From assembly GCA_964583685.1 (NCBI GenBank), contig CAZOVJ010000002.1, forward strand, positions 277,862 to 341,861: DNA of 64,000 bases, written 5' to 3'. This DNA comes from an uncultured Gammaproteobacteria bacterium. Lineage in GTDB: Bacteria > Patescibacteriota > Microgenomatia > UBA8517. A model generated the notes under the pieces. That model made no database searches. It worked only from the letters and a program-made list of their open reading frames with translations, and had not been told where the DNA came from. Below are positions 31,408-64,000 of the stretch, one piece after another. Each line of letters opens with the position of its first letter. The first letter of the stretch is position 1. A program made the position numbers and the translations under genes.

Positions 31408-31480
31408 GCACCCGTAGCTCAGTGGTTAGAGCGCGTGTCTTATAAACACGAGGTCCTTGGTTCGATACCAAGCGGGTGCA
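31408..31480 (+). tRNA. tRNA-Ile (anticodon TAT / UAU)
   Basis: Manual cloverleaf: acceptor GCACCCG/CGGGTGC, D-arm GCTC...GAGC, anticodon stem CGTGT/ACACG with loop CTTATAA (anticodon TAT), T-arm GGTCC-TTGGTTC-GATACC... The fold checks out; no CCA encoded. Confidence 0.8.
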
Positions 31481-31511
31481 CTAAGTTGCTTTTTGACATG
31501 TAGCCAGGAGT

Positions 31512-32916: not shown

Positions 32917-32989
32917 TGCGGGGTAGTGTAGGGTTGCACGGGAGGCTCATAATCTCCCAGACTAGGTTCGACTCCTAGCCCCGCAACCA
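32917..32989 (+). tRNA. tRNA with CAT anticodon (elongator Met or Ile2/lysidine type), CCA encoded
   Basis: Manual fold: acceptor TGCGGGG/CCCCGCA, U8, anticodon stem GGAGG/TCTCC with loop CTCATAA, T-arm CTAGG-TTCGACT-CCTAG, discriminator A plus CCA. It lacks the three G-C pairs of initiator tRNAs. Confidence 0.7.
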
Positions 32990-33061
32990 GCTAGGGTAGC
33001 TCAGGGGCAGAGCAATCGTTTCATAAGCGATAGGTCGTGGGTTCGAATCCCACTCCTAGCA
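32990..33061 (+). tRNA. second tRNA with CAT anticodon, directly abutting the first
   Basis: Acceptor GCTAGGG/TCCTAGC (G7-U66 wobble), D-arm GCTC-AGGGGCA-GAGC, anticodon stem ATCGT/GCGAT with loop TTCATAA, T-arm GTGGG-TTCGAAT-CCCAC. No CCA encoded. Confidence 0.7.
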
Positions 33062-33075
33062 CTTCCTCCTGGAAT

Positions 33076-52134: not shown

Positions 52135-52872
52135 ATGGGTGAGGTATTAATAGGCACATCGGGTTGGCAATATCGGCACTGGCGGGGAGTATTCTATCCA
52201 GAAGATTTAGGTCAAAAAGATTGGTTGAAATATTATGCAAAACATTTCGACACAGTAGAGGTAAACTATTCCTTTTATCGCCAGCCCAAGCCCGAAACCT
52301 TTAAGAAATGGAAATCCTTGATACCTGAGAACTTTGTTTTTTCCATCAAAGGAAATAGATTTATAACCCACATCAAGAGACTTAAAGATTGTCAAGAACC
52401 GGTAAAGAGGTTTTTCGAATCTGCCAAGGGTTTGCTGACCGACGGTAGGGGTTGTAAAGACGTAATTCTTTGGCAACTGACTCCAAGCATGAAGGAGAAC
52501 TTGGATAGACTGAAGGGGTTTATGGACCTTTTGCCTTCGGATTTTCGTCAGGCTTTTGAGTTTCGGCATAAAAGTTGGATGAGCAAGAAAGTTTTTAGCT
52601 TTATTCAAAATTATTCGAGAATCGAAGCGGCCATGGTTTTACAAGATTGGCAGGAATGGCCAATACTTAAAGAGCCCGTTGGCGATTTTGTTTACATTCG
52701 TCTGCACGGCAAAGACCAGCTTTATGCATCCGGGTATAGAGATAAAGAACTTGAGAAATGGGCTGAAAGAATGCGAAAATGGGAGAGTAAATTGGACATT
52801 TACATTTATTTCAACAATGATGCCCTGGGCCATGCAGTTAATAATGCCCTGAAACTCAAGGCTCTTTTATGA
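52135..52872 (+). CDS. DUF72 (YecE-like) family protein
   Basis: IGTSGWQYRHW N-terminal signature of DUF72. Confidence 0.7.
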   Translation: MGEVLIGTSGWQYRHWRGVFYPEDLGQKDWLKYYAKHFDTVEVNYSFYRQPKPETFKKWKSLIPENFVFSIKGNRFITHIKRLKDCQEPVKRFFESAKGLLTDGRGCKDVILWQLTPSMKENLDRLKGFMDLLPSDFRQAFEFRHKSWMSKKVFSFIQNYSRIEAAMVLQDWQEWPILKEPVGDFVYIRLHGKDQLYASGYRDKELEKWAERMRKWESKLDIYIYFNNDALGHAVNNALKLKALL

Positions 52873-53402
52873 AAAAAGAAATTATTATTCACTTTTCTTT
52901 TCTGATTTTATTATTCTTTTTAATCTCCCTATTCCGAGGTTGGTTAAATTTGTCTTACTGGGTTTTTTGGTTTGGGGGAATTTTAGGAACTTTGTTGCCT
53001 GACTTAGAGCATCTGGTCTATGTTTATTTTTCCCGGCCTTATGAACTTACTTCCCAGAGAGTAAAGCAGATGTTGCAAGGGAGAAGAATAGTCCAGGCCC
53101 TAGAGCTTTTAAAAGATACCCGCTACGAGCGGACCCATTTGATATTTCACACTATTTGGTTCCAGGTTGTTTTCTTTTTTTTGGCTTTCTGGATTCTTAC
53201 TTCCTCGGGGAGCATTTTGGGTAGAGGGCTTGTCCTGGCTTTTTTACTTCATTTGTTAATTGACCAAGTGCTTGACTTATGGAAATTGGGGAATCTTGAT
53301 AAATGGCTTAGCCAAATGCCTTTAGCTCTTGATAAGAATCAGTCAAGAGCCTATTGGTTTTTTATATTTTTATTATTCTTGCTTTTGTGTTTTGTCTTTT
53401 GA
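52869..53402 (+). CDS. hypothetical polytopic membrane protein
   Basis: 177 aa, 4-5 hydrophobic helices. Confidence 0.35.
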   Translation: MKKEIIIHFSFLILLFFLISLFRGWLNLSYWVFWFGGILGTLLPDLEHLVYVYFSRPYELTSQRVKQMLQGRRIVQALELLKDTRYERTHLIFHTIWFQVVFFFLAFWILTSSGSILGRGLVLAFLLHLLIDQVLDLWKLGNLDKWLSQMPLALDKNQSRAYWFFIFLLFLLLCFVF

Positions 53403-53468
53403 TTATCAAAAAGGGTTTGTTTGCTTATTGACTTCAAATGTTTAGGGTCAGTATAGTGAAAAGCGTCA

Positions 53469-53789
53469 ATGGCAACGACCACAACAACAGATTCTGATTT
53501 TGAAAACAATGTGCTTAAATCAAAAATTCCCGTCTTGGTTGATTTTTGGGCACCATGGTGTGGCCCATGTATAACGGCCGAACCGGTCCTCGGAGAACTG
53601 AGCGAGACTTACCAGGGGAAAATTGAGGTGATGAAATTGAATGTTGATGAAAATCCCCAGACCGCGGTAAGATATAGAGTGATGTCAATTCCAACAACCA
53701 TTCTCTTTAAGGGAGGTCAAGAAATAGATAGACAAATTGGATTTGCCGGTAAAGTAGCATTTGAAATATTAATTAAGAAAGGATTATAA
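53469..53789 (+). CDS. trxA: thioredoxin
   Basis: WAPWCGPC active site. Confidence 0.85.
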   Translation: MATTTTTDSDFENNVLKSKIPVLVDFWAPWCGPCITAEPVLGELSETYQGKIEVMKLNVDENPQTAVRYRVMSIPTTILFKGGQEIDRQIGFAGKVAFEILIKKGL

Positions 53790-53806
53790 GAAGGGGGTGA
53801 TAGATT

Positions 53807-54085
53807 TTGAACCCAATTGATCAACCAGACCAGCCGACTCCTATAGGGGGTCCTGTTCAACCTGTAGGCGACACTCCGCCTGCTCAACCAAGTGAGGATA
53901 AGACACCACCTCCGCCTCCAGGTGGAATACCAGATACGCCAACACCAGAGCCAACACCAGGCCCGGTGACACCAGAACCGACACCAGAAACCCCACCTCC
54001 TGCCACTACTCCGGAACAACCGGCCGGTGGGCCAGTTGTTCCAAGTGAAGAAGAAAAGTCAGGAGAAATGCCTGGTAACGTCTAA
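53807..54085 (+). CDS. Pro/Thr/Glu-rich low-complexity small protein (TTG start)
   Basis: TPEPTPGPVTPEPTPETPPP repeats. SD AAGGGGGTGA (53791-53800) lies 6 nt before the TTG. It ends exactly at the trxB start. Confidence 0.3.
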   Translation: MNPIDQPDQPTPIGGPVQPVGDTPPAQPSEDKTPPPPPGGIPDTPTPEPTPGPVTPEPTPETPPPATTPEQPAGGPVVPSEEEKSGEMPGNV

Positions 54086-55035
54086 TGGCGAAACCCTGGG
54101 ATGTCATTATCATTGGTTCAGGCCCTGCCTCACTAACTGCGGCAATTTATACAAGCCGCAATGATGCTTCTACCTTAGTTCTTGGAGGAGAGAACTGGGG
54201 AGGCCAATTGATGTTGACCACGGCCGTTGATAATTTTCCTGGCTTTCCCAAAGGCGTTCAAGGCCCAGAGCTCATGAAGAAAATGAGAAAGCAGGTTGAA
54301 CGCTTCGGTGCTGAATTTATTGAAAAAGATGTTCAAGGTGTGAACTTTAATAAAACCCCCTTTGAGCTTTTTGTTGGAGGTTTAAAATATTCGGCCAAAA
54401 GTGTTATTATTGCCAGCGGTGCATCCTTCAAAAGACTGGCAGTTCCGGGAGAATCTGAGTTAATAGGTAGAGGAGTATCTTTTTGCGCCCTTTGTGACGC
54501 CCCTCTTTTTAAAGGGAAAAAAGTTGTTGTGGTCGGGGGAGGAGACAGCGCAGCCGAAGAGGCGTTGATTCTGAGCAAATATGCAAAAGAAGTACACATT
54601 ATTCATCGCCGAGATAAGTTAAGGGCTCAAGCGGCCATCCAGAAGAAAATATTTGCCAACAAAAAGCTCAAATTACTTTGGAATACTGAGGTTGAGCGGA
54701 TTGTCGGCGAAGAAAAGGTCGAAAAAATTATTCTCAGAAATAATCAAACAGGAAAGTCACAAGAGTTCATTGTAGATGGAGTTTTTATTGCCATTGGTCA
54801 TCAGCCAAAAAGTGACATTTTTAAGAATGCTCTTGAAACAGACGAGAAAGGATATATAAAGAGAATGACAATTGACAAACCGCAAATGCCAAATAGTTAT
54901 CAGATGGCAACCAGTATTCCCGGGGTTTTTGTGGCCGGAGATGTTCATGATTTTCACTATCGCCAAGCAATAACTGCAGCTGGTTTTGGTTGCATGGCGG
55001 CGATGGAAGTTATAAAGTGGCTGGATGAAAGATAA
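54085..55035 (+). CDS. trxB: thioredoxin-disulfide reductase
   Basis: IIGSGPASLTAAIY FAD motif, redox-active CALCDA, and VVGGGDSAAEEA NADPH motif. Confidence 0.85.
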   Translation: MAKPWDVIIIGSGPASLTAAIYTSRNDASTLVLGGENWGGQLMLTTAVDNFPGFPKGVQGPELMKKMRKQVERFGAEFIEKDVQGVNFNKTPFELFVGGLKYSAKSVIIASGASFKRLAVPGESELIGRGVSFCALCDAPLFKGKKVVVVGGGDSAAEEALILSKYAKEVHIIHRRDKLRAQAAIQKKIFANKKLKLLWNTEVERIVGEEKVEKIILRNNQTGKSQEFIVDGVFIAIGHQPKSDIFKNALETDEKGYIKRMTIDKPQMPNSYQMATSIPGVFVAGDVHDFHYRQAITAAGFGCMAAMEVIKWLDER

Positions 55036-55762
55036 TATTCTAGGAAGGCTTGTTCCTTTTCTTTTAGTGGCAACTGTCTGCTTGGCCTTTGCCGTTGGAA
55101 TTCTTTGGGAGAAGGTAAGGAAGCTTGAAAGTCCAACTGCTTCTCCTGTTCCCAAACCTCAAGTAGAGCAGGTTCTTGGTCAGGGCAAACTTGCTGATGA
55201 ATTGGCTGAGAAGATTACTCAGGTTAATGATCAGGACCATATTCAAGGTTCTCGAGACGCCAAAGTCTTTTTGATTGAATATTCAGACCCAGAGTGCCCC
55301 TATTGTAAAAAATTTCACCTAACAGCTCAGCAGCTTGTTGATGAATATAAAGGACAAGTGGCCTGGGTTTATCGGCATTTTCCCCTAGATATGCTTCATA
55401 CAAAAGCCAGGGCTGAAGCTGAGGCAATGGAGTGTGCAGGAGAACTGGGGGGCGAGGAGGCATTTTGGACCTTTAATGACAAACTTTACGAGATTACTCC
55501 TAGTAATAATGGCCTTGACTTGGATAAGCTTCCTCAGCTGGCCAGTCAGATAGGCCTTGATGTCGGTAAGTTTAAAGAATGTTTGGCGGCTAAAAGATAT
55601 AAGGATAAAGTTGAAGATAATTATCAGGGAGGGAGTGCGGCTGGAGTAACGGGTACCCCCGGTAACTTTGTTATTAATAGTCAGGGTGATGCCTGGTTTG
55701 TTCCCGGGGCCGTCTCTCTTGAGCTTCTTAAAAAGACAATAGACCAGGCACTTCAGGATTAA
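55025..55762 (+). CDS. DsbA-like thiol:disulfide oxidoreductase, membrane-anchored
   Basis: N-terminal TM and a CPYC active site (DPECPYCKKFH); 245 aa. Confidence 0.65.
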   Translation: MKDNILGRLVPFLLVATVCLAFAVGILWEKVRKLESPTASPVPKPQVEQVLGQGKLADELAEKITQVNDQDHIQGSRDAKVFLIEYSDPECPYCKKFHLTAQQLVDEYKGQVAWVYRHFPLDMLHTKARAEAEAMECAGELGGEEAFWTFNDKLYEITPSNNGLDLDKLPQLASQIGLDVGKFKECLAAKRYKDKVEDNYQGGSAAGVTGTPGNFVINSQGDAWFVPGAVSLELLKKTIDQALQD

Positions 55763-56285
55763 GTGATTCTAAGATTTTATAACTGACGACAGCCGCTGTG
55801 CCCCAGACATTGAAGGATTTATTGATACCAAACATAGGTAATTCAACGATGATGTCTGCCGCACCTAGGACCTTTGCATCAATACCACTGCTTTCATTAC
55901 CGACCACTATTGCCAAAGGAAAATTGGGCCTGAGCTCTGAGTAGGGGATAGAATTTTTATGTTGTTCTAGAACAATAATCTGAATTTTCTGTCCCCTGAG
56001 CTCTTTGATGGTTGTCAAGGTCGAGTCCCTTTTCTCCCAGGGAACCCAATTTTCAGTTCCCACCGCTGCCTTATGGATACGAGAGGAGGGAGGATATTCC
56101 ATCTGGCCACAGAGAAAGATTTTTTTACAGGCAATGGCGTCGGCCAACCTGAAAAAAGAGCCGATATTGTAAGTATCAATGATTTTATCCAGGACAAGAT
56201 AAATCGGATTTCTCTTAATCCTGGCCAGCTCCGACCTTTTAGGTTTTGTTTTTCTCAATTCAGCAGCACCTAGTTTTTTAGTCAT
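55728..56285 (-). CDS. SpoU/TrmH-family RNA 2'-O-methyltransferase
   Basis: LVLDKIIDTYNIGSFFRLADA, VVGNESSGI and a SPOUT C-terminal knot region. Its 3' end overlaps the DsbA-like gene convergently by 35 nt. Confidence 0.7.
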   Translation of the reverse strand: MTKKLGAAELRKTKPKRSELARIKRNPIYLVLDKIIDTYNIGSFFRLADAIACKKIFLCGQMEYPPSSRIHKAAVGTENWVPWEKRDSTLTTIKELRGQKIQIIVLEQHKNSIPYSELRPNFPLAIVVGNESSGIDAKVLGAADIIVELPMFGINKSFNVWGTAAVVSYKILESLNPEVPGLLSF

Positions 56286-56330
56286 CTTTAGAGAGTCCTC
56301 GGCTGCGGGGCAGGGTATCCTACGCTTAAG

Positions 56331-56654
56331 CTACGGATTACCATAGTATCCTTTCTTTTGCTTCGGACTACTTATCCTGCCCCTTAAGAAATCTTTCTTC
56401 AAGACTACAGAAATTAATCTCTTATAAGCAAATGCTTTACCTGAACCTGTTTTCAAATAAAGCTCAAAATCTCTAGCCTCCTTTTCTGTGTTAAATGCGC
56501 CGTACCAAACCAATTTCCAAGGCCGGTGTGCTTTCGTTGATTTTATCCTACCTTCGTTATGCAGCTTAAATCGTAACTTTAAATCTCTGGTTGAACCAAA
56601 GTAAAAGATATGAGATTTCTCGCTTAATAAGATGTATGAATAGAATCTTAGCAT
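56331..56654 (-). CDS. GIY-YIG nuclease-domain protein (UPF0213-like)
   Basis: FYSYILLSEKSHIFYFGSTRDLKLRFKLHN carries the GIY...YxG...R...E...N pattern; 107 aa. Confidence 0.7.
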   Translation of the reverse strand: MLRFYSYILLSEKSHIFYFGSTRDLKLRFKLHNEGRIKSTKAHRPWKLVWYGAFNTEKEARDFELYLKTGSGKAFAYKRLISVVLKKDFLRGRISSPKQKKGYYGNP

Positions 56655-56893
56655 GCCATTCTGTAGCTATACTTCGCTATTCCATAGCTACGTAGTAGCG
56701 ACGGATAGCCTTGGCGAAAGATGGCTGCACATCGTGAATAACATTAGAACAATACTTCAAGAGACAACTGAGTATGTTTACATCCCCGATGTCTGCCCAC
56801 AACAAGTGTAATTATAAAGAATTTACCTCACTAAATTCTAGTATGCCGTTAACTTCTAGATGCAACCTAAAGCCTGCTTACATCTTATCCTTT

Positions 56894-59131
56894 TTAACTT
56901 GCAGAGAAAGGAGATTTACTATCCAATATCGCTCTCCTTATAGAAAGTGGCAGGTTGTAAGTCATATTAAAAGCCCAATACTCAAGTAATTTACCTTCTC
57001 CTCCAAATACAGGCACAGTGTCAACTATTTTTGACACATAGTAATCACCGAGAAGAAGAGACATATCGTTATAGTAAGAGAACATCTCTAGTGGAGCAAA
57101 GATATTCCCTATAACTCTCCATGGTGCTGAAACAGCCCCTAAAGCTCGACTGAAAAGTAACTTACTATCTCTATTCTTAACGATATGTGGCATTTCAGAA
57201 GCGAGTTGAGCTAAAACATAAGCCTCTCTTAGGATGCCTGAAGGAGATATTGGATTTAATGCCGCAACTCCTAAAGGAAGGAAATCGCTAGTTGATAAAC
57301 CATAAGCAGCTAACACCAGGTAGAGAGTTTTTGAGACTGCTTCTGTGCCAACCGTAAAACCTAAATCTCTAATAAACCCCTGCATTCTTTTTTCTCCGAC
57401 CTGTTTTATCAACTCTTCCGCTTGTTCTGGTGTAACAATGCCTCTTTCAAGTTGGGAACTGACTATATCACCAAGCCAATCTTCTCTATATTTTCTATCA
57501 ACGAATAAACGAGCTGGTTGAACTATTAGTTTTCGAACCAGTTCTGTGCGAGTCTCTGAGTCCGTTGCTAGCCGATGTAAACCCTTTGGTTGCCAACTTA
57601 GGAACAATTTATCGGCTAAATATCTTGGGGTAGAAACAGTAAGAGATGTTGCTCTTTCCGTGGTTATTCGTTGTTGACCTTCCCACCCAAGAAGATCGTT
57701 GTATTTACTAATATCAATTACTTCTCTTAAATAACCTGGTTTTCTTAAAATGTTATTCAAATGTTGTCTATATCTTTCATTTCCCAAAAGACGCATCAAC
57801 GGCTGTCCTACCATAGGTGTATTGTCCAGGATGAGGTAAGGTAAATATCTTTTCGACCCGTCTCTTAATTGTGTTGCTTCTGCCTCTGAGACCTTACCAA
57901 GCCTCTGCCAATCACCGATAGTTGCTTTCCTAACTTTTTCTTGAAGTTCCTTGTCTTTTAGAATTCGTGTTCTCATATGCCATAAATTAGGCAAGCCGCT
58001 TCTATACCTTTCATCATCCTCTTTCAGTCGTTGTATTAAACCATCGACAGAACTAAACGATTCTGTATGCGCTGCAAGATAAGAATCTAGTTTCTTAAAA
58101 TCTACCTCGTCAAAGTGAGCAAAAACGCCTCTTTTTAATCCATCAAATATAATTCTTGCATGAACGGGTGAAAGAGGAAGGAAAAAAGGAACAGCTAAAC
58201 CTGGCTGGCAATCAACTGCCGCAAATTCTGAAAGACCAGTTTTTTGATCATTTCTGGTTAAAACATTTGCTTGAGAAACGAGAGTATACCACTCGTATTG
58301 CCGAGCAAGTCCCAAAGCACCAATATCATGGCACACCCTTACTAGATCGTCCATAAAAACTCTCTTACGCCTCATTTCTGAATCAGGATGTTCTCTTGTT
58401 TTTCCTAACAACCTTAAAACCATTTTGTCATCAGCTTCGTATCGTGAACTCCTTCCGTTAACCCATTCGTGAACTCCAGCAAAACTTCCAACTTCGCTAT
58501 CCCAGTAATATCCAAATGGTTTTGCTACCGCAGAATCTGTTCCAAGTTCAATGTTTGTGGCTACCCGAAGAAGTTGCTGCCATATAAGCGCCGATCTTAA
58601 AGCCTCTTCTCTCAATCGAGGGGTAAAAGAAGCCTGATAGCTTAACTTAAAAAGTAAATCACGGAAAGCCTCTTTCCATTTGCTTTTTGGTCTTAGTACC
58701 TTGAGTGCGACAGGATTTTTGTCTCCATCTTCTTTAGAAGCATCATAGATTACGCCTTTCTCAGGCATTGCTCGGTAAACTTGACCAGCAAACCCACTTC
58801 CTGGACTTGTTTCTATGTTAAATCGCTCTATACCCAAGCCGTTACCATCTAAGGCACGAACATTTGCCTCAACATTTTCACCAATAAAATATCCATTTCT
58901 TTTCGGTTTGACTAAAATCTCACCTGATTTAATTCTATTATCAAGTTGGCGTCGAAAAGCAGTTGCTGAATCTTCTGGTGGTTGAGAGGTTGAAGAATAA
59001 ATTAGAACCTCATGAGAGGTAGTATTGAGTTGCACAGAGGGCGTGGCATCTTGTTCAAGTTGGGCAGGCAATTCTGATTGTGGAACTCCTCTTGGAATAA
59101 AACCAGGGGGGTTAATTGCCTCTTTTGACAT
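56894..59131 (-). CDS. atypical protein-kinase-like protein (ABC1/UbiB-like glycine loop and VAxK), 745 aa
   Basis: GSGFAGQVYRA (rc of 58769-58801) followed by PVALKVLRP (rc of 58688-58711), a DCQPG (DFG-like) motif, and a ~300-aa C-terminal extension with no match. The Gly-loop nucleotide coordinates were derived arithmetically from the ORF start and not re-read from the sequence. Apparent GC is higher than in neighbouring core genes. Confidence 0.5.
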   Translation of the reverse strand: MSKEAINPPGFIPRGVPQSELPAQLEQDATPSVQLNTTSHEVLIYSSTSQPPEDSATAFRRQLDNRIKSGEILVKPKRNGYFIGENVEANVRALDGNGLGIERFNIETSPGSGFAGQVYRAMPEKGVIYDASKEDGDKNPVALKVLRPKSKWKEAFRDLLFKLSYQASFTPRLREEALRSALIWQQLLRVATNIELGTDSAVAKPFGYYWDSEVGSFAGVHEWVNGRSSRYEADDKMVLRLLGKTREHPDSEMRRKRVFMDDLVRVCHDIGALGLARQYEWYTLVSQANVLTRNDQKTGLSEFAAVDCQPGLAVPFFLPLSPVHARIIFDGLKRGVFAHFDEVDFKKLDSYLAAHTESFSSVDGLIQRLKEDDERYRSGLPNLWHMRTRILKDKELQEKVRKATIGDWQRLGKVSEAEATQLRDGSKRYLPYLILDNTPMVGQPLMRLLGNERYRQHLNNILRKPGYLREVIDISKYNDLLGWEGQQRITTERATSLTVSTPRYLADKLFLSWQPKGLHRLATDSETRTELVRKLIVQPARLFVDRKYREDWLGDIVSSQLERGIVTPEQAEELIKQVGEKRMQGFIRDLGFTVGTEAVSKTLYLVLAAYGLSTSDFLPLGVAALNPISPSGILREAYVLAQLASEMPHIVKNRDSKLLFSRALGAVSAPWRVIGNIFAPLEMFSYYNDMSLLLGDYYVSKIVDTVPVFGGEGKLLEYWAFNMTYNLPLSIRRAILDSKSPFSAS

Positions 59132-59185
59132 GTTTAATTTTAATTTTCATTCTATGCTTTTAACAGTAAATAATAAAACTTCGGT

Positions 59186-59220
59186 AATTATACATCTTTT
59201 TGATCAGAAATTGTATAATT
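59186..59220. promoter_or_regulatory. 9-bp perfect inverted repeat AATTATACA-N17-TGTATAATT forming two divergent extended -10 (TGnTATAAT) elements
   Basis: Read from the sequence: 59186-59194 and 59212-59220. Each arm reads TGTATAAT on the strand of the gene it faces (the kinase-like gene leftward, HTH and PHP-ATPase rightward). Confidence 0.45.
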
Positions 59221-59230
59221 GTGTTGAGGT

Positions 59231-59422
59231 ATGCCGAAGATTAAAGACGAATTACCAAAACTCTTAACCATAAAACAAACAGCTGACATTCTAAATGTGC
59301 ATGTAGAGACTTTACGGAGATGGGGCAAAAGCGGAAAACTAAAAGCTATTAGAGTTAATAAACGGGGTGATAGGCGCTATGACCCCAGAGATATTGAAGC
59401 AATACTGAAAAACAAAAAATAA
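59231..59422 (+). CDS. excisionase/MerR-type helix-turn-helix DNA-binding protein
   Basis: 63 aa; LLTIKQTADILNVHVETLRRWGKSGKLKAIRV is typical of the excisionase-family HTH (AlpA/Xis-like). Its stop is 2 nt before the large ATPase gene. Confidence 0.7.
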   Translation: MPKIKDELPKLLTIKQTADILNVHVETLRRWGKSGKLKAIRVNKRGDRRYDPRDIEAILKNKK

Positions 59423-59424
59423 AT

Positions 59425-62289
59425 ATGAAATATCCAAAAGGTTCTGAATGGCGAAAGTGGGATCTACATATTCACAGCCCGCTTTCAATCCTAGCCAATA
59501 AATACCCTAAACTGCCAGACGGCAAGCCAGATTGGGAAAAATTCTTAAAAAGCCTTGAAGAGTTGGACATTGCAGTTGTTGGTATAACCGATTACTTCTC
59601 AATAGAAGGATATAAAAAAATCTTAGATTTCAAAAAGGCTGGTAGGTTAAAGAATATCGATCTTATTCTGCCCAATATCGAGTTTAGGTTAAACTGTGTC
59701 ATTGCAAGTAAAAAGGATGGAGCTAAACCAAGACGATTAAATTATCATGTGATCTTCTCGAATGAGGTGTCACCTCAGGACATCGAAGAACACTTTCTGC
59801 ATGACCTTCATTTTTACTATGAGGGCAATCCCCAAAGCAAAGATGAAAGTCGTAAGTTAAAACTTTCCAATTTGAAGGTATTAGGAAATCAACTTATATC
59901 TCAACATGCTCCTTTCAAAGGAAGAGACCCGTTGGAGTTAGGCGCATCAAATGCTGTTGTAAGCCATGAAGAAATAACGGAATTGTTGAGTGGGGATAGT
60001 CGCTTCAAAGGAAAATATCTCCTTGTCCTTCCAGAGGAACTAACAAACTTGATTGACTGGGATGGTCAAGACCATCTTATTCGGAAAGGGCTTCTCCAAA
60101 AATCAGATATGCTGTTTTCCTCTAATCCCAAAACTGTCCAATGGTGTCTTGGGAAACCGCCCTACATGGAAGGAGAGAGAAAATTCAAAAAGGAGTTTAA
60201 GACCTTGAAATCCTGTATCCACGGATCGGATAGCCACTGTATTGATGATGTTGGGATTCCATGTGCCAAAAGGGGTGACCCCAGTCATAAGTGCGACGGA
60301 AAGCCAAATACCTGCGATTTAAGATTCTGTTGGATAAAAGCTGACCCGACCTTTGAGGGACTAAAACAACTTTTGTATGAACCAGAGGAGAGAGTCTCAA
60401 TCCAAACTAATTGCCCAATACCTCCCAGAAGTAATTTAACGATTGTCAAAGTTAAAATTCCAGAGTCGAAAATCAACGATGAGCTGTCCATTGCTAACAC
60501 AGAAATAGAACTTAACCCAGGCTTGGTTGCCGTAGCAGGAGGTAAAGGAACTGGCAAAACCGCCTTCGTTGACCAGATTGCTAACTGTTACTTTAATCGA
60601 GTGGATTCTGGCGATGAGAATTCCTTTGTGAGGAGAATTTCAGATCAGAATCCTGACTTAAAAATCGAATTAACTTTCAAGGATAAATCAACTTTTTCAA
60701 AAAAAGCCACAGACCTATTACTTTTTGAAGAGGGGCAAATTGCTTATATCGCTCAGGGAGAACTAGAACAGTATATTGGAGAAAGGTCGGATCTTGACGA
60801 ATATCTTAATGACTTAATCTTCCAAAGTCCGAAAATACAAAATTCAGTAGAAAAATACGAATTTTCAAAGACTCAAACATCAATAGACGATCTCAGACAA
60901 AAAATTCAGAAGAAGTCAGAATCGATTGAGTTAATAGAGCAAGCAACTAAAACAGAAGCCATTGAAAAGGCAAAAATTAAAGAAAAACAGTCCAAAGCAG
61001 AATTGGAAGATATAACCCAAAGAATCACAGAGCTTGAAAAGAGGCTTAGTGATAAAAAGGTCAAGCTCGCAAAGAAAAAACAAAAAGCAATAGCGAGATT
61101 AAAAAACAGAAGAGACTTGTTTATTAAATTAAAAAAGGAATTAACGCAGGCAATCGACTTCATTGATCAAGAATTTCCAAACTTTAACTCTTACATCTCC
61201 TCTATCAACAAACTGCTCAAAAAGTTAGAAATTCCAGAACCATTTCCCGATTTAGCGTATCCTGACAAGGATAAGTTGCAAGAAAAATTAGATTATATTG
61301 AGCAGGAAATAAACGAGGTAATTAAAAAGATCGGGAAAGCCCAAAAGGACATCGATAAGTTTGAAGCAGGCATACGAACCCACACATCAATGCTTGATAA
61401 AAAGAGAGAGGCTAAAATCACTCTAAATCAAGCTAAGGAGGAAAATAAAAAATTAAAGAAGAAGAAAAAAGAGCTTGCGTCTAAAAGCAAAGAAAGGAAA
61501 AAGTTATTTACCCAGATGGTTACTGCCTTCCTTGAACTGAAGAAAAAGTATGACGAGATTATCTCGCTATTTTCTGTAGACAAGGCACAAGTTCTATCTG
61601 ATCTCGATTTCGTCGCAGAGGTTAATTTTGATTCAAAACAACTACTCAAAAACGCAGAGGACATTGTTGACAACAGGAGAGTTACAGTCAGACCAGAAGA
61701 TGGCGATGACTGGGTATTCAAGGGCTTAGTCGGACTTTATAAGGAAGTTGCAGCTGGCGACGAAACCAAAATTAAAACTTTAACTGACGAGATAGAGCGT
61801 TTGAATAAGGACTTGAAGGATAAGATAAAAACTTCAAGCGCTATAAGTATTGGCGATTTTTATAAATTCCTATACGGCAGCTACCTGGAAGTCATCCCTG
61901 TTGTCAAATACAAGAATACCAGCGTCAATAAGCTCTCGCTGGGGCAAAAAGCGACAGTCCTTATCAAGATTTATTTAGCTGAGGGGGACAAACCTATTAT
62001 CATCGACTCGCATGACGACCATCTTGATAATGAATTCATCATGGACGAGCTTATTTGTTCTATAAGAGAAGCTAAAAAGTATCGACAGATTATCTTAGTA
62101 TCCAATAACGGCAATGTTGTTATAAATAGTGATGCAGAACAGGTCATTTTGGCAAACAGGGACAGCAATGGAAAAATCTCGTATATCTCTGGTTCAATAG
62201 AAGAGCCAAAGATTAGAAATAGAGCGGTTAAGGTATTAGAGGGCGGATCAGAAGCATTTAGGAAACGGCAACAAAAATACAGAATATGA
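59425..62289 (+). CDS. PHP-domain phosphoesterase fused to a Rad50/SbcC-like coiled-coil ABC ATPase (candidate defence/DNA-surveillance protein)
   Basis: PHP motifs WDLHIHS (59461-59478), GITDYF and HGSDSH (approx. 60220-60240); Walker A GGKGTGKT (60538-60561); a ~320-aa Lys/Glu-rich heptad coiled coil; ABC signature LSLGQKA (61933-61953); Walker B/D-loop PIIIDSHDDHLD (61993-62028). 954 aa. Confidence 0.6.
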   Translation: MKYPKGSEWRKWDLHIHSPLSILANKYPKLPDGKPDWEKFLKSLEELDIAVVGITDYFSIEGYKKILDFKKAGRLKNIDLILPNIEFRLNCVIASKKDGAKPRRLNYHVIFSNEVSPQDIEEHFLHDLHFYYEGNPQSKDESRKLKLSNLKVLGNQLISQHAPFKGRDPLELGASNAVVSHEEITELLSGDSRFKGKYLLVLPEELTNLIDWDGQDHLIRKGLLQKSDMLFSSNPKTVQWCLGKPPYMEGERKFKKEFKTLKSCIHGSDSHCIDDVGIPCAKRGDPSHKCDGKPNTCDLRFCWIKADPTFEGLKQLLYEPEERVSIQTNCPIPPRSNLTIVKVKIPESKINDELSIANTEIELNPGLVAVAGGKGTGKTAFVDQIANCYFNRVDSGDENSFVRRISDQNPDLKIELTFKDKSTFSKKATDLLLFEEGQIAYIAQGELEQYIGERSDLDEYLNDLIFQSPKIQNSVEKYEFSKTQTSIDDLRQKIQKKSESIELIEQATKTEAIEKAKIKEKQSKAELEDITQRITELEKRLSDKKVKLAKKKQKAIARLKNRRDLFIKLKKELTQAIDFIDQEFPNFNSYISSINKLLKKLEIPEPFPDLAYPDKDKLQEKLDYIEQEINEVIKKIGKAQKDIDKFEAGIRTHTSMLDKKREAKITLNQAKEENKKLKKKKKELASKSKERKKLFTQMVTAFLELKKKYDEIISLFSVDKAQVLSDLDFVAEVNFDSKQLLKNAEDIVDNRRVTVRPEDGDDWVFKGLVGLYKEVAAGDETKIKTLTDEIERLNKDLKDKIKTSSAISIGDFYKFLYGSYLEVIPVVKYKNTSVNKLSLGQKATVLIKIYLAEGDKPIIIDSHDDHLDNEFIMDELICSIREAKKYRQIILVSNNGNVVINSDAEQVILANRDSNGKISYISGSIEEPKIRNRAVKVLEGGSEAFRKRQQKYRI

Positions 62290-62432
62290 CATTTGCTTTA
62301 ATTGTAAGCCCCTGTGTTGACTTCTGTGGGACTTTCCAGCCTCAAGTGACCATATGCCAAGCTCAAATCAGCTTTGGGGGAGATTTGCAAAGGTTAGTGC
62401 CTAGTTTACCCGCCTACAGCTTTTGTCCAGTC

Positions 62433-63029
62433 TTATTTCACCTGGGCAAACTCTCTTCCATCAGGAGTAACACACTTTCTTGGTTCACCAGTTCTTTGAG
62501 AATACTGCTCTGATGAGAGCTGCCCTCTGGCTTCAACACAATCCTCATATGTTTCTACCCATTTGAATCTGTCATTTATTGAAGGGGCAAGATCGCCTCC
62601 AGGAAGAAGTTCTGGGTAGAACATGCCTGGGCAACCATGACTGCAATCATCAAACTTGCCTTCGTTCAGTAAAACTTCAGCCAACTCCCAAGCACTCATT
62701 GTTTGAGAAATCTCATAAGTAGTTTGAGTATTGATGGTGTTGTTGCTAATGCTAATTGCTCCCTCTTGCCCAGGGGTGGCATCTTCGGCATGCCCCAGGG
62801 CATATTTGAAGGCATCCTCGTCTTTGATAAAGCCATAGTAGCGAAGATTGCTGACAACACCCATTAAAGTAGCTTCTTTGCCGATGCGGAATTGAACCAC
62901 TTGGGCATTTTGTCTTGGTGCTTCAAACTTGCTTTGACGAGACTTGGTGAAATAAACGGCAATGCTTGCCAGCAAGACAAGAGCAACAACAATTAGTGGG
63001 ATAGTTGGTAGTTTTTTCTTCATGTTCAT
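62433..63029 (-). CDS. hypothetical secreted/membrane-anchored Cys-containing protein
   Basis: N-terminal signal/TM (LPTIPLIVVALVLLASIAVYF), a CSHGCPG motif, and a strong SD AAAGGAGGTGA upstream; 198 aa. Confidence 0.4.
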   Translation of the reverse strand: MNMKKKLPTIPLIVVALVLLASIAVYFTKSRQSKFEAPRQNAQVVQFRIGKEATLMGVVSNLRYYGFIKDEDAFKYALGHAEDATPGQEGAISISNNTINTQTTYEISQTMSAWELAEVLLNEGKFDDCSHGCPGMFYPELLPGGDLAPSINDRFKWVETYEDCVEARGQLSSEQYSQRTGEPRKCVTPDGREFAQVK

Positions 63030-63100
63030 TTTAATTTTTCACCTCCTTTCGTTAAGAATTAGCCTTAACTTACTAGAGGTTTCGGATGTTAACTTCCTTT

Positions 63101-63225
63101 GGGGGAGATTGTCAAATCCAGGGAAAACAAAAAGCTCCCCACAGCGATGGGCTTACGCCCACCTGCCACCCTTTCGGATGACAGCCTCGACGGCGCTCTG
63201 TGAAGAGCTTATTGCCGTCGAGGTC
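63101..63225 (-). ncRNA. candidate structured cis-regulatory RNA in the 5' leader of the 62433..63029 gene (unclassified)
   Basis: A GC-rich block in an AT-rich intergenic region. On the minus strand it folds as a 10-bp stem (63185-94/63214-23) enclosing an inner hairpin, a 9-bp hairpin with a GAAA tetraloop (63163-84; needs G-U pairs, so only stable on the minus strand), a GGGC-GUAA-GCCC hairpin (63148-59), and a GGGGAG/CUCCCC long-range pair (63102-07/63135-40). Confidence 0.35.
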
Positions 63226-63386
63226 TTCAATGCCATGCCCTAAAAGGGTTTAGGCAATATGCTTGTATTTTATCAATTTAACAATTTTCTTGCCATACCC
63301 CTTAGTTTTGGCTTAAAGACATCATATTTGATAAAATTATCATTAGAAGGCACTTTAGGTGGTGCAATTAAATTACCCGATATTAC

Positions 63387-64000
63387 AATGAGCGTATCGA
63401 ACATAATCCAGCAGGTTATCGAAATCACCAATCAGAAATTGGAAATCTCCCCAAAAAGAGACAAGTTTATTTCTATTTCTTTGTGGGATTTTAGAAATGA
63501 AAAGGGGAACACGATACCAAAAACCGATCTAAAGAAGGTTTTGAGAAAACTAGAGGAAGAGCAGTTAATTAAGTTGATCTTTACTGACCATTTAGACAGG
63601 TTGGGACGACAAGCTGGAGACAAGGTTGAATTTCAAATAAACAGAAACGCCTTCGATAAGTTTTATAGAAAAAACAGAAACCCACAACTTACCTCAAAGG
63701 TATCTCAAACAGCTAAAAATGGAGAAGTGTTCTATGAGGTTTTTTATAGTGAGATGTCCAGAGAGATTGTAGTCAACGGTTTCCAACTGGCAAAACCAGA
63801 TTTCGAGTCAGAAAATGAGCAATTCTTTGCTTATGCGTATAAAAACGCCTACAGAAGAATACCTATTAAAGAAATTGAAGAGAATTATAAGACAAAGTTC
63901 AAAAAGTCTCCACATAGAATCCTGGCTGATTTGGGTTTTACAGGTAGTTTTGCAAAAGCCTTCTTTAGTATATCGAGAAAGGGAGTTTTGTTTAGAAAGA
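63387..64000 (+). CDS. hypothetical protein (partial; continues beyond the window end)
   Basis: Open frame from ATG 63387 to the window end (>200 aa, MSVSNIIQQVIEITNQKLEISPKRDKF...). It is not in the ORF track because there is no stop within the window. AT-rich like the core genome. Confidence 0.4.

Follow-up and report, generated by a model that had tools for sequence, protein, structure and literature searches.

The window analyzed here is the whole of a 64,000-nucleotide stretch (contig CAZOVJ010000002.1 of assembly GCA_964583685.1, positions 277,862 to 341,861, forward strand) from a bacterium of the Candidate Phyla Radiation (CPR) that is Microgenomates/Woesebacteria-like, and our subject is the segment at its right end, from about 55.7 to 63.4 kb, which an earlier reading of the nucleotide sequence (hereinafter the original prediction) had flagged as a compositionally distinct accessory segment and possibly a new defense system. 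The seven open reading frames (ORFs) on which that prediction drew are all present at the positions it gave, and its domain calls are correct. From left to right, a DsbA-like gene identified by its domain call (55025–55762, plus strand) converges on a gene for a SpoU/TrmH-family RNA 2′-O-methyltransferase (55728–56285, minus strand; Pfam SpoU_methylase, 7.7e-28), the two overlapping by 35 nt (55728–55762) as had been described. An attL-like left junction, consisting of an exact 15-nt copy of a tRNA-Gln(UUG) 3′ end (56301–56315, minus strand), separates the latter from the gene for a small, stand-alone GIY-YIG domain protein of 107 aa (56331–56654, minus strand; Pfam GIY-YIG, 7.1e-16) and from that for a 745-aa protein with a protein-kinase-like fold and a long all-helical C-terminal half (56894–59131, minus strand). 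On the opposite strand follow the genes for a 63-aa, TrlR-like DNA-binding protein of the HTH_17/MerR type (helix-turn-helix, HTH; hereinafter HTH63; 59231–59422, plus strand; Pfam HTH_17, 2.8e-12) and for a 954-aa protein with an AAA_23 ATPase domain that matches the NCBIfam TrlF family over its full length (59425–62289, plus strand; TrlF_fam_ATP, 508 bits). The segment is completed by a gene for a membrane-anchored or exported protein of 196–198 aa with four C-terminal cysteines (62433–63023, or to 63029 in its longer form, minus strand), a LOOT RNA (Rfam RF03000; 63146–63256, minus strand) and a 271-aa ORF that is cut by the window end (63259–64000, plus strand). As detailed below, we regard this segment as probably a composite, in which a core SpoU gene abuts the first part of a tRNA-Gln-associated serine-recombinase island, whose HTH63–TrlF cargo would move among CPR hosts and for which we propose a mechanism centered on TrlF.

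The same locus is present on two metagenomic contigs, and the reverse complement of the 18,647-nt contig L003 corresponds to window positions 52492–64000 with 0 mismatches over 11,509 nt and adds 7.1 kb. Past the 271-aa ORF, which is the first of the island backbone, L003 codes in order for a DUF5659 protein, a 64-aa ORF, an HTH_36 protein that matches phage replication initiators (O-like or DnaD-like PHROGs), three ORFs without assignment and a 540-aa serine recombinase combining Resolvase, Recombinase and Zn_ribbon_recom domains (PHROG integrase phrog_95, 8.5e-66). The recombinase gene lies at about 67.1–68.75 kb, beyond the 64-kb window, and its last 30 nt overlap a tRNA-Gln(UUG) gene, after which come tRNA-Lys, tRNA-Glu and the start of a 16S rRNA gene. 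Since these backbone genes succeed the exported-protein gene, core sequence does not resume at 63.3 kb, where the original prediction had placed its return; the backbone runs on to about 68.7 kb. A search for flanking direct repeats, which had been suggested as a check, recovered a tRNA 3′-end repeat at the two ends of the island: the 3′ end of the tRNA-Gln gene, GGCTGCGGGGCAGGG (plus strand), recurs exactly and in the same orientation at 56301–56315 and at 68722–68736 of the extended contig. The left copy sits in the 45-nt spacer between the SpoU and GIY-YIG genes, and 0 of 300 shuffles reach a repeat of 15 nt, while a general repeat search across the whole contig returned only short, noisy families. 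The simplest account of these observations is that an island of approximately 12,421 bp (from 56316 to about 68736) entered the 3′ part of the tRNA-Gln gene, bringing a tRNA 3′ end with it and leaving the original one displaced towards SpoU. Of this 12.4-kb island, the first 7.7 kb fall within the window, starting at 56.30 kb, and this position, rather than 55.73 kb, is the left limit of the accessory segment.

The SpoU/TrmH gene falls outside that limit and is a core housekeeping gene that flanks the island without being part of it. At E ≤ 1e-20, 2829 homologues match it; the best 119 non-self matches listed are 66–73% identical to it, with named sources in Woesebacteria, Microgenomates or Patescibacteria. 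The gene order thioredoxin, small ORF, thioredoxin reductase, DsbA and SpoU is kept in the relatives L112–L117 (two sets of Woesebacteria contigs), in which SpoU is preceded, at a distance of 20 nt to 1.8 kb, by a tRNA-Glu/Lys/Gln cluster, with a 16S rRNA gene nearby in one set. The window genome shows the same succession of tRNA-Glu, tRNA-Lys, tRNA-Gln and SpoU, except that 12.4 kb separate the last two, and in L112 and L115 the tRNA cluster adjoins SpoU without such an insert. As these relatives are distant (about 70% identity in SpoU), the empty site is supported at the level of synteny only. As to the small ORF of this block, between the thioredoxin and thioredoxin reductase genes the window has a 92-aa, low-complexity ORF rich in proline, threonine and glutamate (53807–54085, plus strand), and in the relatives the position is occupied by a 124–146-aa ORF without a Pfam match.

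The case for an accessory segment had originally been made in part from composition, with the claim that its codon and GC usage looks richer in G/C than that of its flanks. The segment has a GC content of 39.6% (0.396) as compared to 41.0% (0.4095) in the rest of the window, placing it in the lowest 3% of same-size windows; hence it is slightly AT-richer, the opposite of what had been claimed. Tetranucleotide distance is mildly raised across 54–64 kb, to the same extent as in the opening 6 kb of the window. Neither the GC content at third codon positions (GC3) nor codon distance sets the genes of the segment apart from 56 core genes, the 745-aa gene being the sole low-GC3 gene among them (0.271, z = −2.5), with one core gene lower still. 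With deviations that are small and run in the direction opposite to the claim, we rejected composition (GC, tetranucleotides, GC3 and codon distance alike) as a sign of foreign origin.

The island is not a solitary case. In L005, from a Woesebacteria metagenome-assembled genome (MAG), a recombinase gene overlaps tRNA-Gln(CUG) in the same geometry, and no tRNA repeat of at least 11 nt was found at the left end of that island within the 18 kb examined. In L016, from a Saccharibacteria MAG, a 33-nt tRNA-Glu repeat encloses a recombinase, a 1520-aa helicase-like gene and a TrlF homologue, with the 3′ end of the recombinase gene overlapping tRNA-Glu as it overlaps tRNA-Gln in the window island. The two closest islands, L030 and L005, have the layout of the window island plus extra cargo. 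That of L030 encodes a Peptidase_S26 protein, HTH63, TrlF, a type II methyltransferase, a restriction endonuclease (REase), an exported-protein homologue (minus strand), LOOT (minus strand), DUF5659, HTH_36, a GpA_ATPase-domain protein, HTH_17 and the recombinase; that of L005 encodes HTH63, a HEPN-like protein, a type III methyltransferase, a type III REase, TrlF, LOOT and the recombinase with its tRNA-Gln. The cargo end thus differs among related islands. TrlF is 73–85% identical across the three, whereas their backbone proteins are mostly too diverged for phmmer to match, except for the recombinase of L005 and the exported protein of L030. Accordingly, the TrlF cassette seems either to move between backbones or to be under a much stronger constraint than they are.

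The TrlF protein aligns from residue 5 to 953 with the entire NCBIfam model NF045780 (TrlF family AAA-like ATPase; model positions 1–944 of 944) at 508.2 bits, as compared to a cut-off of 350. Across 30 homologues, the predicted PHP-type metal ligands in the N-terminal part, D13, H17, E86, H108, D269 and H271, are invariant and H15 nearly so; a Cys/His cluster at 264–302 is likewise kept, and the ABC ATPase motifs are invariant, namely G372, G375, G377 and K378 of the Walker A motif, Q444, S838, G840 and Q841 of the signature, and D861 of Walker B. In an AlphaFold2 (AF2) model, a coiled coil of about 240 residues (helices 475–717) lies between the two ATPase half-sites, and a Foldseek search with this model retrieves MukB, Rad50, JetC and RecN at E-values of about 1e-9 to 1e-8. 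As modeled, therefore, the ATPase half is an SMC/Rad50-like ABC ATPase. PADLOC matches to JetC and LmuB are marginal (E of 1e-4 to 1e-3), and a sequence and profile search against PDB gave marginal Rad50, ABC and coiled-coil matches and no PHP structure. The PHP part is predicted from the N-terminal motifs, from the family annotation and from weak Pfam matches to PHP_C and PHP (in 13 and 3 of the 30 members, respectively).

The gene for HTH63 (PADLOC mad1, 7.8e-12) ends with a stop codon 2 nt before the TrlF start. A homologous HTH lies directly upstream of TrlF in L006/L030, which represent one and the same region, and in L021, and it heads the operon of the HEPN-like gene, type III restriction-modification (RM) genes and TrlF in L005. 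HTH63 and TrlF constitute a TrlR-like/TrlF module, a tightly coupled pair. At 2064–2721 of L005, about 3 kb upstream of the intact cassette, a second HTH63 gene is followed by a 155-aa ORF with a weak Pfam PHP match (E 0.0063). This ORF may be what is left of a TrlF gene, in which case the module could have been acquired more than once or be decaying.

To characterize the genomic contexts of TrlF more widely, we assembled 24 genome loci and searched for homologues within 10 kb of the gene. TrlF lies beside or inside RM or other PADLOC-listed systems in at least 11 of the 19 loci examined, and in nine loci (L005, L010, L011, L014, L016, L018, L023, L026 and L030) the gene adjoining it itself matches a PADLOC model for RM or another defense system. 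These neighbors are diverse: a type I HsdS (L026), a type II methyltransferase (L023, and with an REase in L030), a type III REase (L005 and L014), a Mko/PDC-S37-like helicase (L016) and an OLD/GajA-like ATPase (L010), to which L007 adds a Cas4-like PDDEXK nuclease gene. Three further loci were read from translations only, these being L025 and L028, with a methyltransferase ORF the same as or near-identical to that of L023, and L021, near-identical to that of L006. On the Patescibacteria contigs L011 (8463–14252) and L018 (5650–11033), TrlF is embedded in a type I RM operon, with hsdM on one side and hsdS on the other, an arrangement that fits the published idea of new defenses nesting inside known immune systems.

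These contexts go along with signs of mobility. A serine recombinase is encoded within 10 kb of TrlF in 6 of the 24 loci by phmmer, and also in L030 by Pfam. TrlF proteins remain 55–60% identical across Planctomycetota, Elusimicrobiota, Cloacimonadota and Aminicenantes, as compared to about 30% for homologues of the 745-aa protein in other phyla, which points to horizontal spread of TrlF. Among plasmid records, 1141 match TrlF at E ≤ 1e-5; none of these covers 80% or more of the query, and the matches listed at 54–79% coverage are mostly annotated as TrlF family AAA-like ATPase. On plasmids TrlF occurs alone, near genes for a type I RM S-subunit, a toxin–antitoxin pair and a NACHT-domain protein, and no TrlG-like gene is annotated beside it on two plasmids. 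Taken together, we propose TrlF as a candidate anti-phage effector, or one acting against mobile genetic elements; this guilt-by-association evidence favors a defense role for TrlF-family PHP/SMC-like ATPases and gives reason to test TrlF alongside Ppl, the validated PHP–ATPase system discussed below.

The LOOT RNA of the window scores 75.1 bits against a gathering score of 46.4 and spans the complete model (positions 1–121 of 121). The motif was reportedly introduced in a 2017 paper, the main text of which makes no mention of it. Homologues were found in L005 (14144–14257, 86.9 bits), L030 (17151–17258, 78.4 bits) and L012 (4936–5076, 63.2 bits). In the three Microgenomates islands (window, L005 and L030), LOOT has the same relative position, between a minus-strand gene and the plus-strand backbone genes, which are DUF5659 and HTH_36 where Pfam detects them. 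The minus-strand neighbor is a homologous exported protein in the window and L030, and an unrelated 290-aa ORF in L005. In the fourth case, on the Bdellovibrionales-labeled contig L012, LOOT lies 39 nt downstream of a serine recombinase gene. LOOT is missing from the island-free Woesebacteria loci L112 and L115 and from seven other TrlF loci, and a search of IMG/VR viral contigs with its core pattern gave four matches, none of which passes the Rfam threshold or encodes island proteins. In the window, LOOT is bracketed by a promoter-like site (63296–63267) and a terminator-like hairpin (63151–63138); these come from a scan of 55.6–64 kb in which the counts equaled the shuffled expectation, and which we used solely to note the bracketing sites. 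The arrangement suggests that LOOT is a free-standing transcript of about 115 nt belonging to the island backbone. The original prediction, which had seen here a structured leader of the exported-protein gene, was right in placing a structured RNA upstream of it, though the RNA is probably not a leader.

The exported protein itself conforms to its earlier description, with a hydrophobic N-terminal anchor (residues 3–29) and four cysteines (127, 131, 162 and 184). It shows weak similarity to the N-terminus of MltG (E 9e-4), and its homologue in the same position in L006/L030 scores 213 bits. Its gene is flanked by two copies of a 20-nt motif, CTTTGGGGGAGATTGTCAAA, at 63097–63116 and 62372–62391 (plus strand), with 0 and 2 mismatches, respectively; two matches occurred in 0 of 100 shuffles, and a partial inverted copy lies at 63439–63456 within the next ORF. 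These copies may be operator sites of an island regulator.

Two further genes lie between the left junction and HTH63. A sequence search of PDB with the 745-aa protein was empty, and a fold search was used instead; the protein has a bilobal kinase fold in which the Gly-rich loop, the VAxK lysine and a DFG-like aspartate are all present, and the residues before N289 read LVSQAN, with no aspartate at the expected catalytic-loop (HRD-type) position. It has no match in Pfam, NCBIfam (including its kinase models) or PADLOC. The family spans many phyla, and its closer members are found among unrelated genes (76% identity), between three GT2 glycosyltransferase genes and three PMT_2 genes (65%) and among central-metabolism genes (51%). 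The GIY-YIG protein has no match in PADLOC, PHROG or NCBIfam, and the island-free relative L113 encodes a 30%-identical GIY-YIG protein near the same tRNA cluster. Both genes, with GIY-YIG at the distal end, lie inside the repeat-defined limits of the island, whether captured as cargo or placed there by something older that happened at that tRNA, and beyond this position nothing links them to TrlF. Separately, in a clade of the 745-aa family with about 30% identity (L031–L110), 20 of 80 loci have a same-strand ORF of about 250–310 aa next in line (median gap, 157 nt), and in 19 loci there is a further downstream ORF of about 250 aa whose product is apparently a membrane protein. The arrangement may represent a conserved operon and, as such, a possible clue to what the family does; it is irrelevant to the window locus.

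Two features elsewhere in the window are recorded for completeness: a tRNA-Ile gene with the anticodon UAU (31408–31481), an anticodon uncommon in bacteria for this tRNA, and two tandem, directly abutting tRNA-Met(CAU) genes (32917–33062).

The genes of the segment had been proposed to form one new multi-component defense or abortive-infection system uniting the kinase-like protein, GIY-YIG, SpoU, HTH63 and the PHP-ATPase. They are adjacent, all but SpoU lie within one mobile island, and kinases, nucleases and SMC-like ATPases are each generally known from some defense systems. Yet in all 24 TrlF loci the surrounding 10 kb lack homologues of the 745-aa protein, GIY-YIG and SpoU. The 745-aa family was followed through 80 metagenomic loci (812 kb), in which there is no GIY-YIG, HTH63 or TrlF and a single SpoU gene, 7 kb away. 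The co-occurrence of kinase-like, GIY-YIG and PHP-ATPase homologues, which the original prediction suggested testing, is thus not seen in these loci. Pfam-annotated neighborhoods of five homologues likewise lack the partners; SpoU is a core gene beyond the very integration junction that separates it from GIY-YIG; the 745-aa protein, GIY-YIG and SpoU have no PADLOC match; and the genes are on opposite strands, with gaps of 239 nt and 99 nt. A single system of this kind is therefore largely refuted already, and we consider it very improbable. What stands of the proposal is an accessory segment that is real and horizontally acquired, with a defense-like pair of HTH and PHP/Rad50-like ATPase genes; what finds no support is the joint action of the kinase-like protein, GIY-YIG, SpoU and the ATPase.

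Two other explanations accept a mobile element at this site and differ on its extent or its purpose. The element might begin at the HTH63 gene (about 59.2 kb), with GIY-YIG and the 745-aa gene being chromosomal and the 15-nt remnant left over from a previous integration or rearrangement at that tRNA. The ordinary chromosomal contexts of the 745-aa homologues of 51–76% identity, none with a recombinase nearby, the GIY-YIG gene near the same tRNA cluster in L113, a cargo end that is different in every related island and the general knowledge that tRNA sites are often hit repeatedly would all agree with this. However, the 99-nt gap between the 745-aa and HTH63 genes contains no tRNA-like fragment or repeat, the tRNA clusters of the relatives lie 20 nt to 1.8 kb from SpoU with no relative of the 745-aa gene between, and the single repeat pair provides a simple and complete account; hence, we think it unlikely that the element is so short. 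Alternatively, TrlF could serve the island itself, in replication, partition or end-processing in the manner of SbcCD/Rad50, or act in a stress response, as the temperature restriction locus of Photorhabdus would imply, with HTH63 as the excisionase (recombination directionality factor) of the serine recombinase. HTH63 does score barely above the NCBIfam 'excise' cut-off (29.3 as compared to 28.8 bits), a Yersinia phage protein annotated as 'chromosome partition protein' matches the last 121 residues of TrlF, and the phenotype of the trl locus is non-phage, with no phage assay for TrlF. Against this, TrlF is lodged between hsdM and hsdS or adjoins type II RM, type III RM, OLD-like or Mko-like genes irrespective of any island backbone, and on plasmids it occurs near type I RM S-subunit, toxin–antitoxin and NACHT genes; its C-terminal module is common to the validated defense protein Ppl; HTH63 is translationally coupled to TrlF and not to the recombinase; and in L030 a different HTH_17 gene directly before the recombinase is a better excisionase candidate. 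We accordingly assign a low probability to a non-immune role of this sort.

Returning to the reading we favor, a tRNA-Gln island with an HTH63–TrlF defense cargo, we posit that the island integrated at the 3′ end of tRNA-Gln(UUG) by means of the large serine recombinase encoded at its far end, next to a backbone that would comprise the LOOT small RNA, the DUF5659 protein, the HTH_36 replication initiator, small ORFs and the recombinase, with the opposite end given over to variable cargo. TrlF would dimerize by way of its ABC heads and its coiled coil, as Rad50, SbcC or JetC do, engage foreign DNA using ATP binding and hydrolysis, and cut nucleic acid with its fused metal-dependent PHP phosphoesterase, making it a one-polypeptide analogue of the Mre11–Rad50/SbcCD nuclease with a defensive role like that of Ppl. 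HTH63 would repress the HTH63–TrlF operon, and the serine recombinase of the island could move the cassette between tRNA sites and CPR hosts; related islands carry type II or III RM genes in the same slot. This proposal builds on the observed family membership of TrlF, its conserved catalytic residues and SMC-like fold, the HTH coupling, the island location and the defense neighborhoods seen elsewhere.

Several points weigh against it. The direct repeat is only 15 nt, and as serine recombinases do not themselves make long repeats, it must come from an island-borne mimic of the tRNA 3′ end; no close relative with an exactly empty site was found, those compared having about 70% SpoU identity; and the 745-aa family is chromosomal elsewhere, which is odd for island cargo. 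As for TrlF, the Pfam PHP match of the window protein is below threshold (E 0.16), and the N-terminal 340 residues of the AF2 model have a low predicted local distance difference test (pLDDT) score, so that the PHP fold is unsupported by structure and we make no fold claim for it. The only phenotype of a trl locus, temperature restriction in Photorhabdus, was mapped to trlG, which is absent here, and not to trlF (PMC7554251). No experiment shows phage defense by any TrlF protein, and in the part of the full-text matches for 'TrlF' that we covered, the Photorhabdus paper is the sole relevant one.

Beyond the individual locus, it is possible, and we suggest it tentatively, that the Microgenomates examples, perhaps along with the Bdellovibrionales-labeled one, represent an undescribed family of small integrative replicative elements with a tRNA-targeting large serine recombinase and a conserved LOOT backbone, which would act as shuttles of interchangeable defense cassettes. 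The cassettes at hand are TrlR–TrlF alone in the window and, in the relatives, TrlF accompanied by type II or type III RM. Under this tentative scenario LOOT might be, for example, a regulator of replication or of a lysogeny-like switch, or a replication primer, and if the scenario is true LOOT gets its first biological context. Independently, placing this orphan RNA on a mobile-element backbone provides a lead towards its function. The analysis also removes a false lead, in that there is no new kinase/nuclease/methylase/ATPase system here, and puts in its place a clean and testable object, a compact island of 12.4 kb in a CPR bacterium whose junctions have been mapped. To our knowledge, mobile elements and immunity are little described in CPR bacteria.

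Among known systems, TrlF takes its name from the temperature restriction locus trlR-trlF-trlG of Photorhabdus laumondii, in which trlR is small and transcription-factor-like, trlF is annotated as a histidinol phosphatase, and all mutations to temperature tolerance fell in trlG (PMC7554251). The window module resembles this locus in the full-length TrlF match, in the small HTH gene placed directly upstream like trlR, and in a patchy, mobile distribution that includes plasmids and RM neighbors. It differs in lacking trlG (AlbA_2 + HATPase_c_4), the next gene being convergent and unrelated, and in its setting, which is a CPR host rather than a proteobacterium and a tRNA-integrated serine-recombinase island.

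The second point of comparison, Ppl, is said to stem from P2-like prophage hotspots, in work of Rousset et al. from 2022. It is a validated single-gene anti-phage system of PHP and ATPase domains whose mechanism is uncharacterized (PMC11482910) and has been classed with the ABC-ATPase defenses (bioRxiv 10.1101/2024.01.29.577857). TrlF shares with it the predicted fusion of a PHP phosphoesterase to an ABC-type ATPase, carriage as cargo by mobile elements, and a homologous C-terminal region of about 120 residues (NCBIfam, 5e-34; PADLOC, 7.3e-29). However, no HTH partner is reported for Ppl, and against the Ppl models only this C-terminal region of TrlF (residues 832–950) aligns, at 117 bits with a cut-off of 1000, indicating that the window protein belongs to a sister family and not to Ppl (NF042955) itself. 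The resemblance to Mre11–Rad50/SbcCD, JetC of Wadjet and LmuB of Lamassu lies in an ABC head split by a long coiled coil and in the predicted pairing of the ATPase with a metal-dependent phosphoesterase or nuclease. In these systems the nuclease is a separate protein (Mre11/SbcD, JetD or LmuA), whereas the candidate in TrlF is a PHP domain fused in cis, and TrlF also differs from SMC-like systems in having no kleisin or KITE partners.

Finally, with tRNA-targeting serine-integrase islands and prophages the locus has in common a three-domain recombinase gene that overlaps its target tRNA, a repeat of the tRNA 3′ end at the far junction and a variable, defense-loaded cargo end. It is set apart from them by its CPR host, by a content in which a PHROG search of the 12.4 kb detected no capsid, tail or conjugation genes, and by the conserved LOOT small RNA in its backbone. 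Thus, the locus joins known kinds: its TrlF-family gene, from a sister family of Ppl, is carried by a serine-recombinase island integrated at a tRNA gene.

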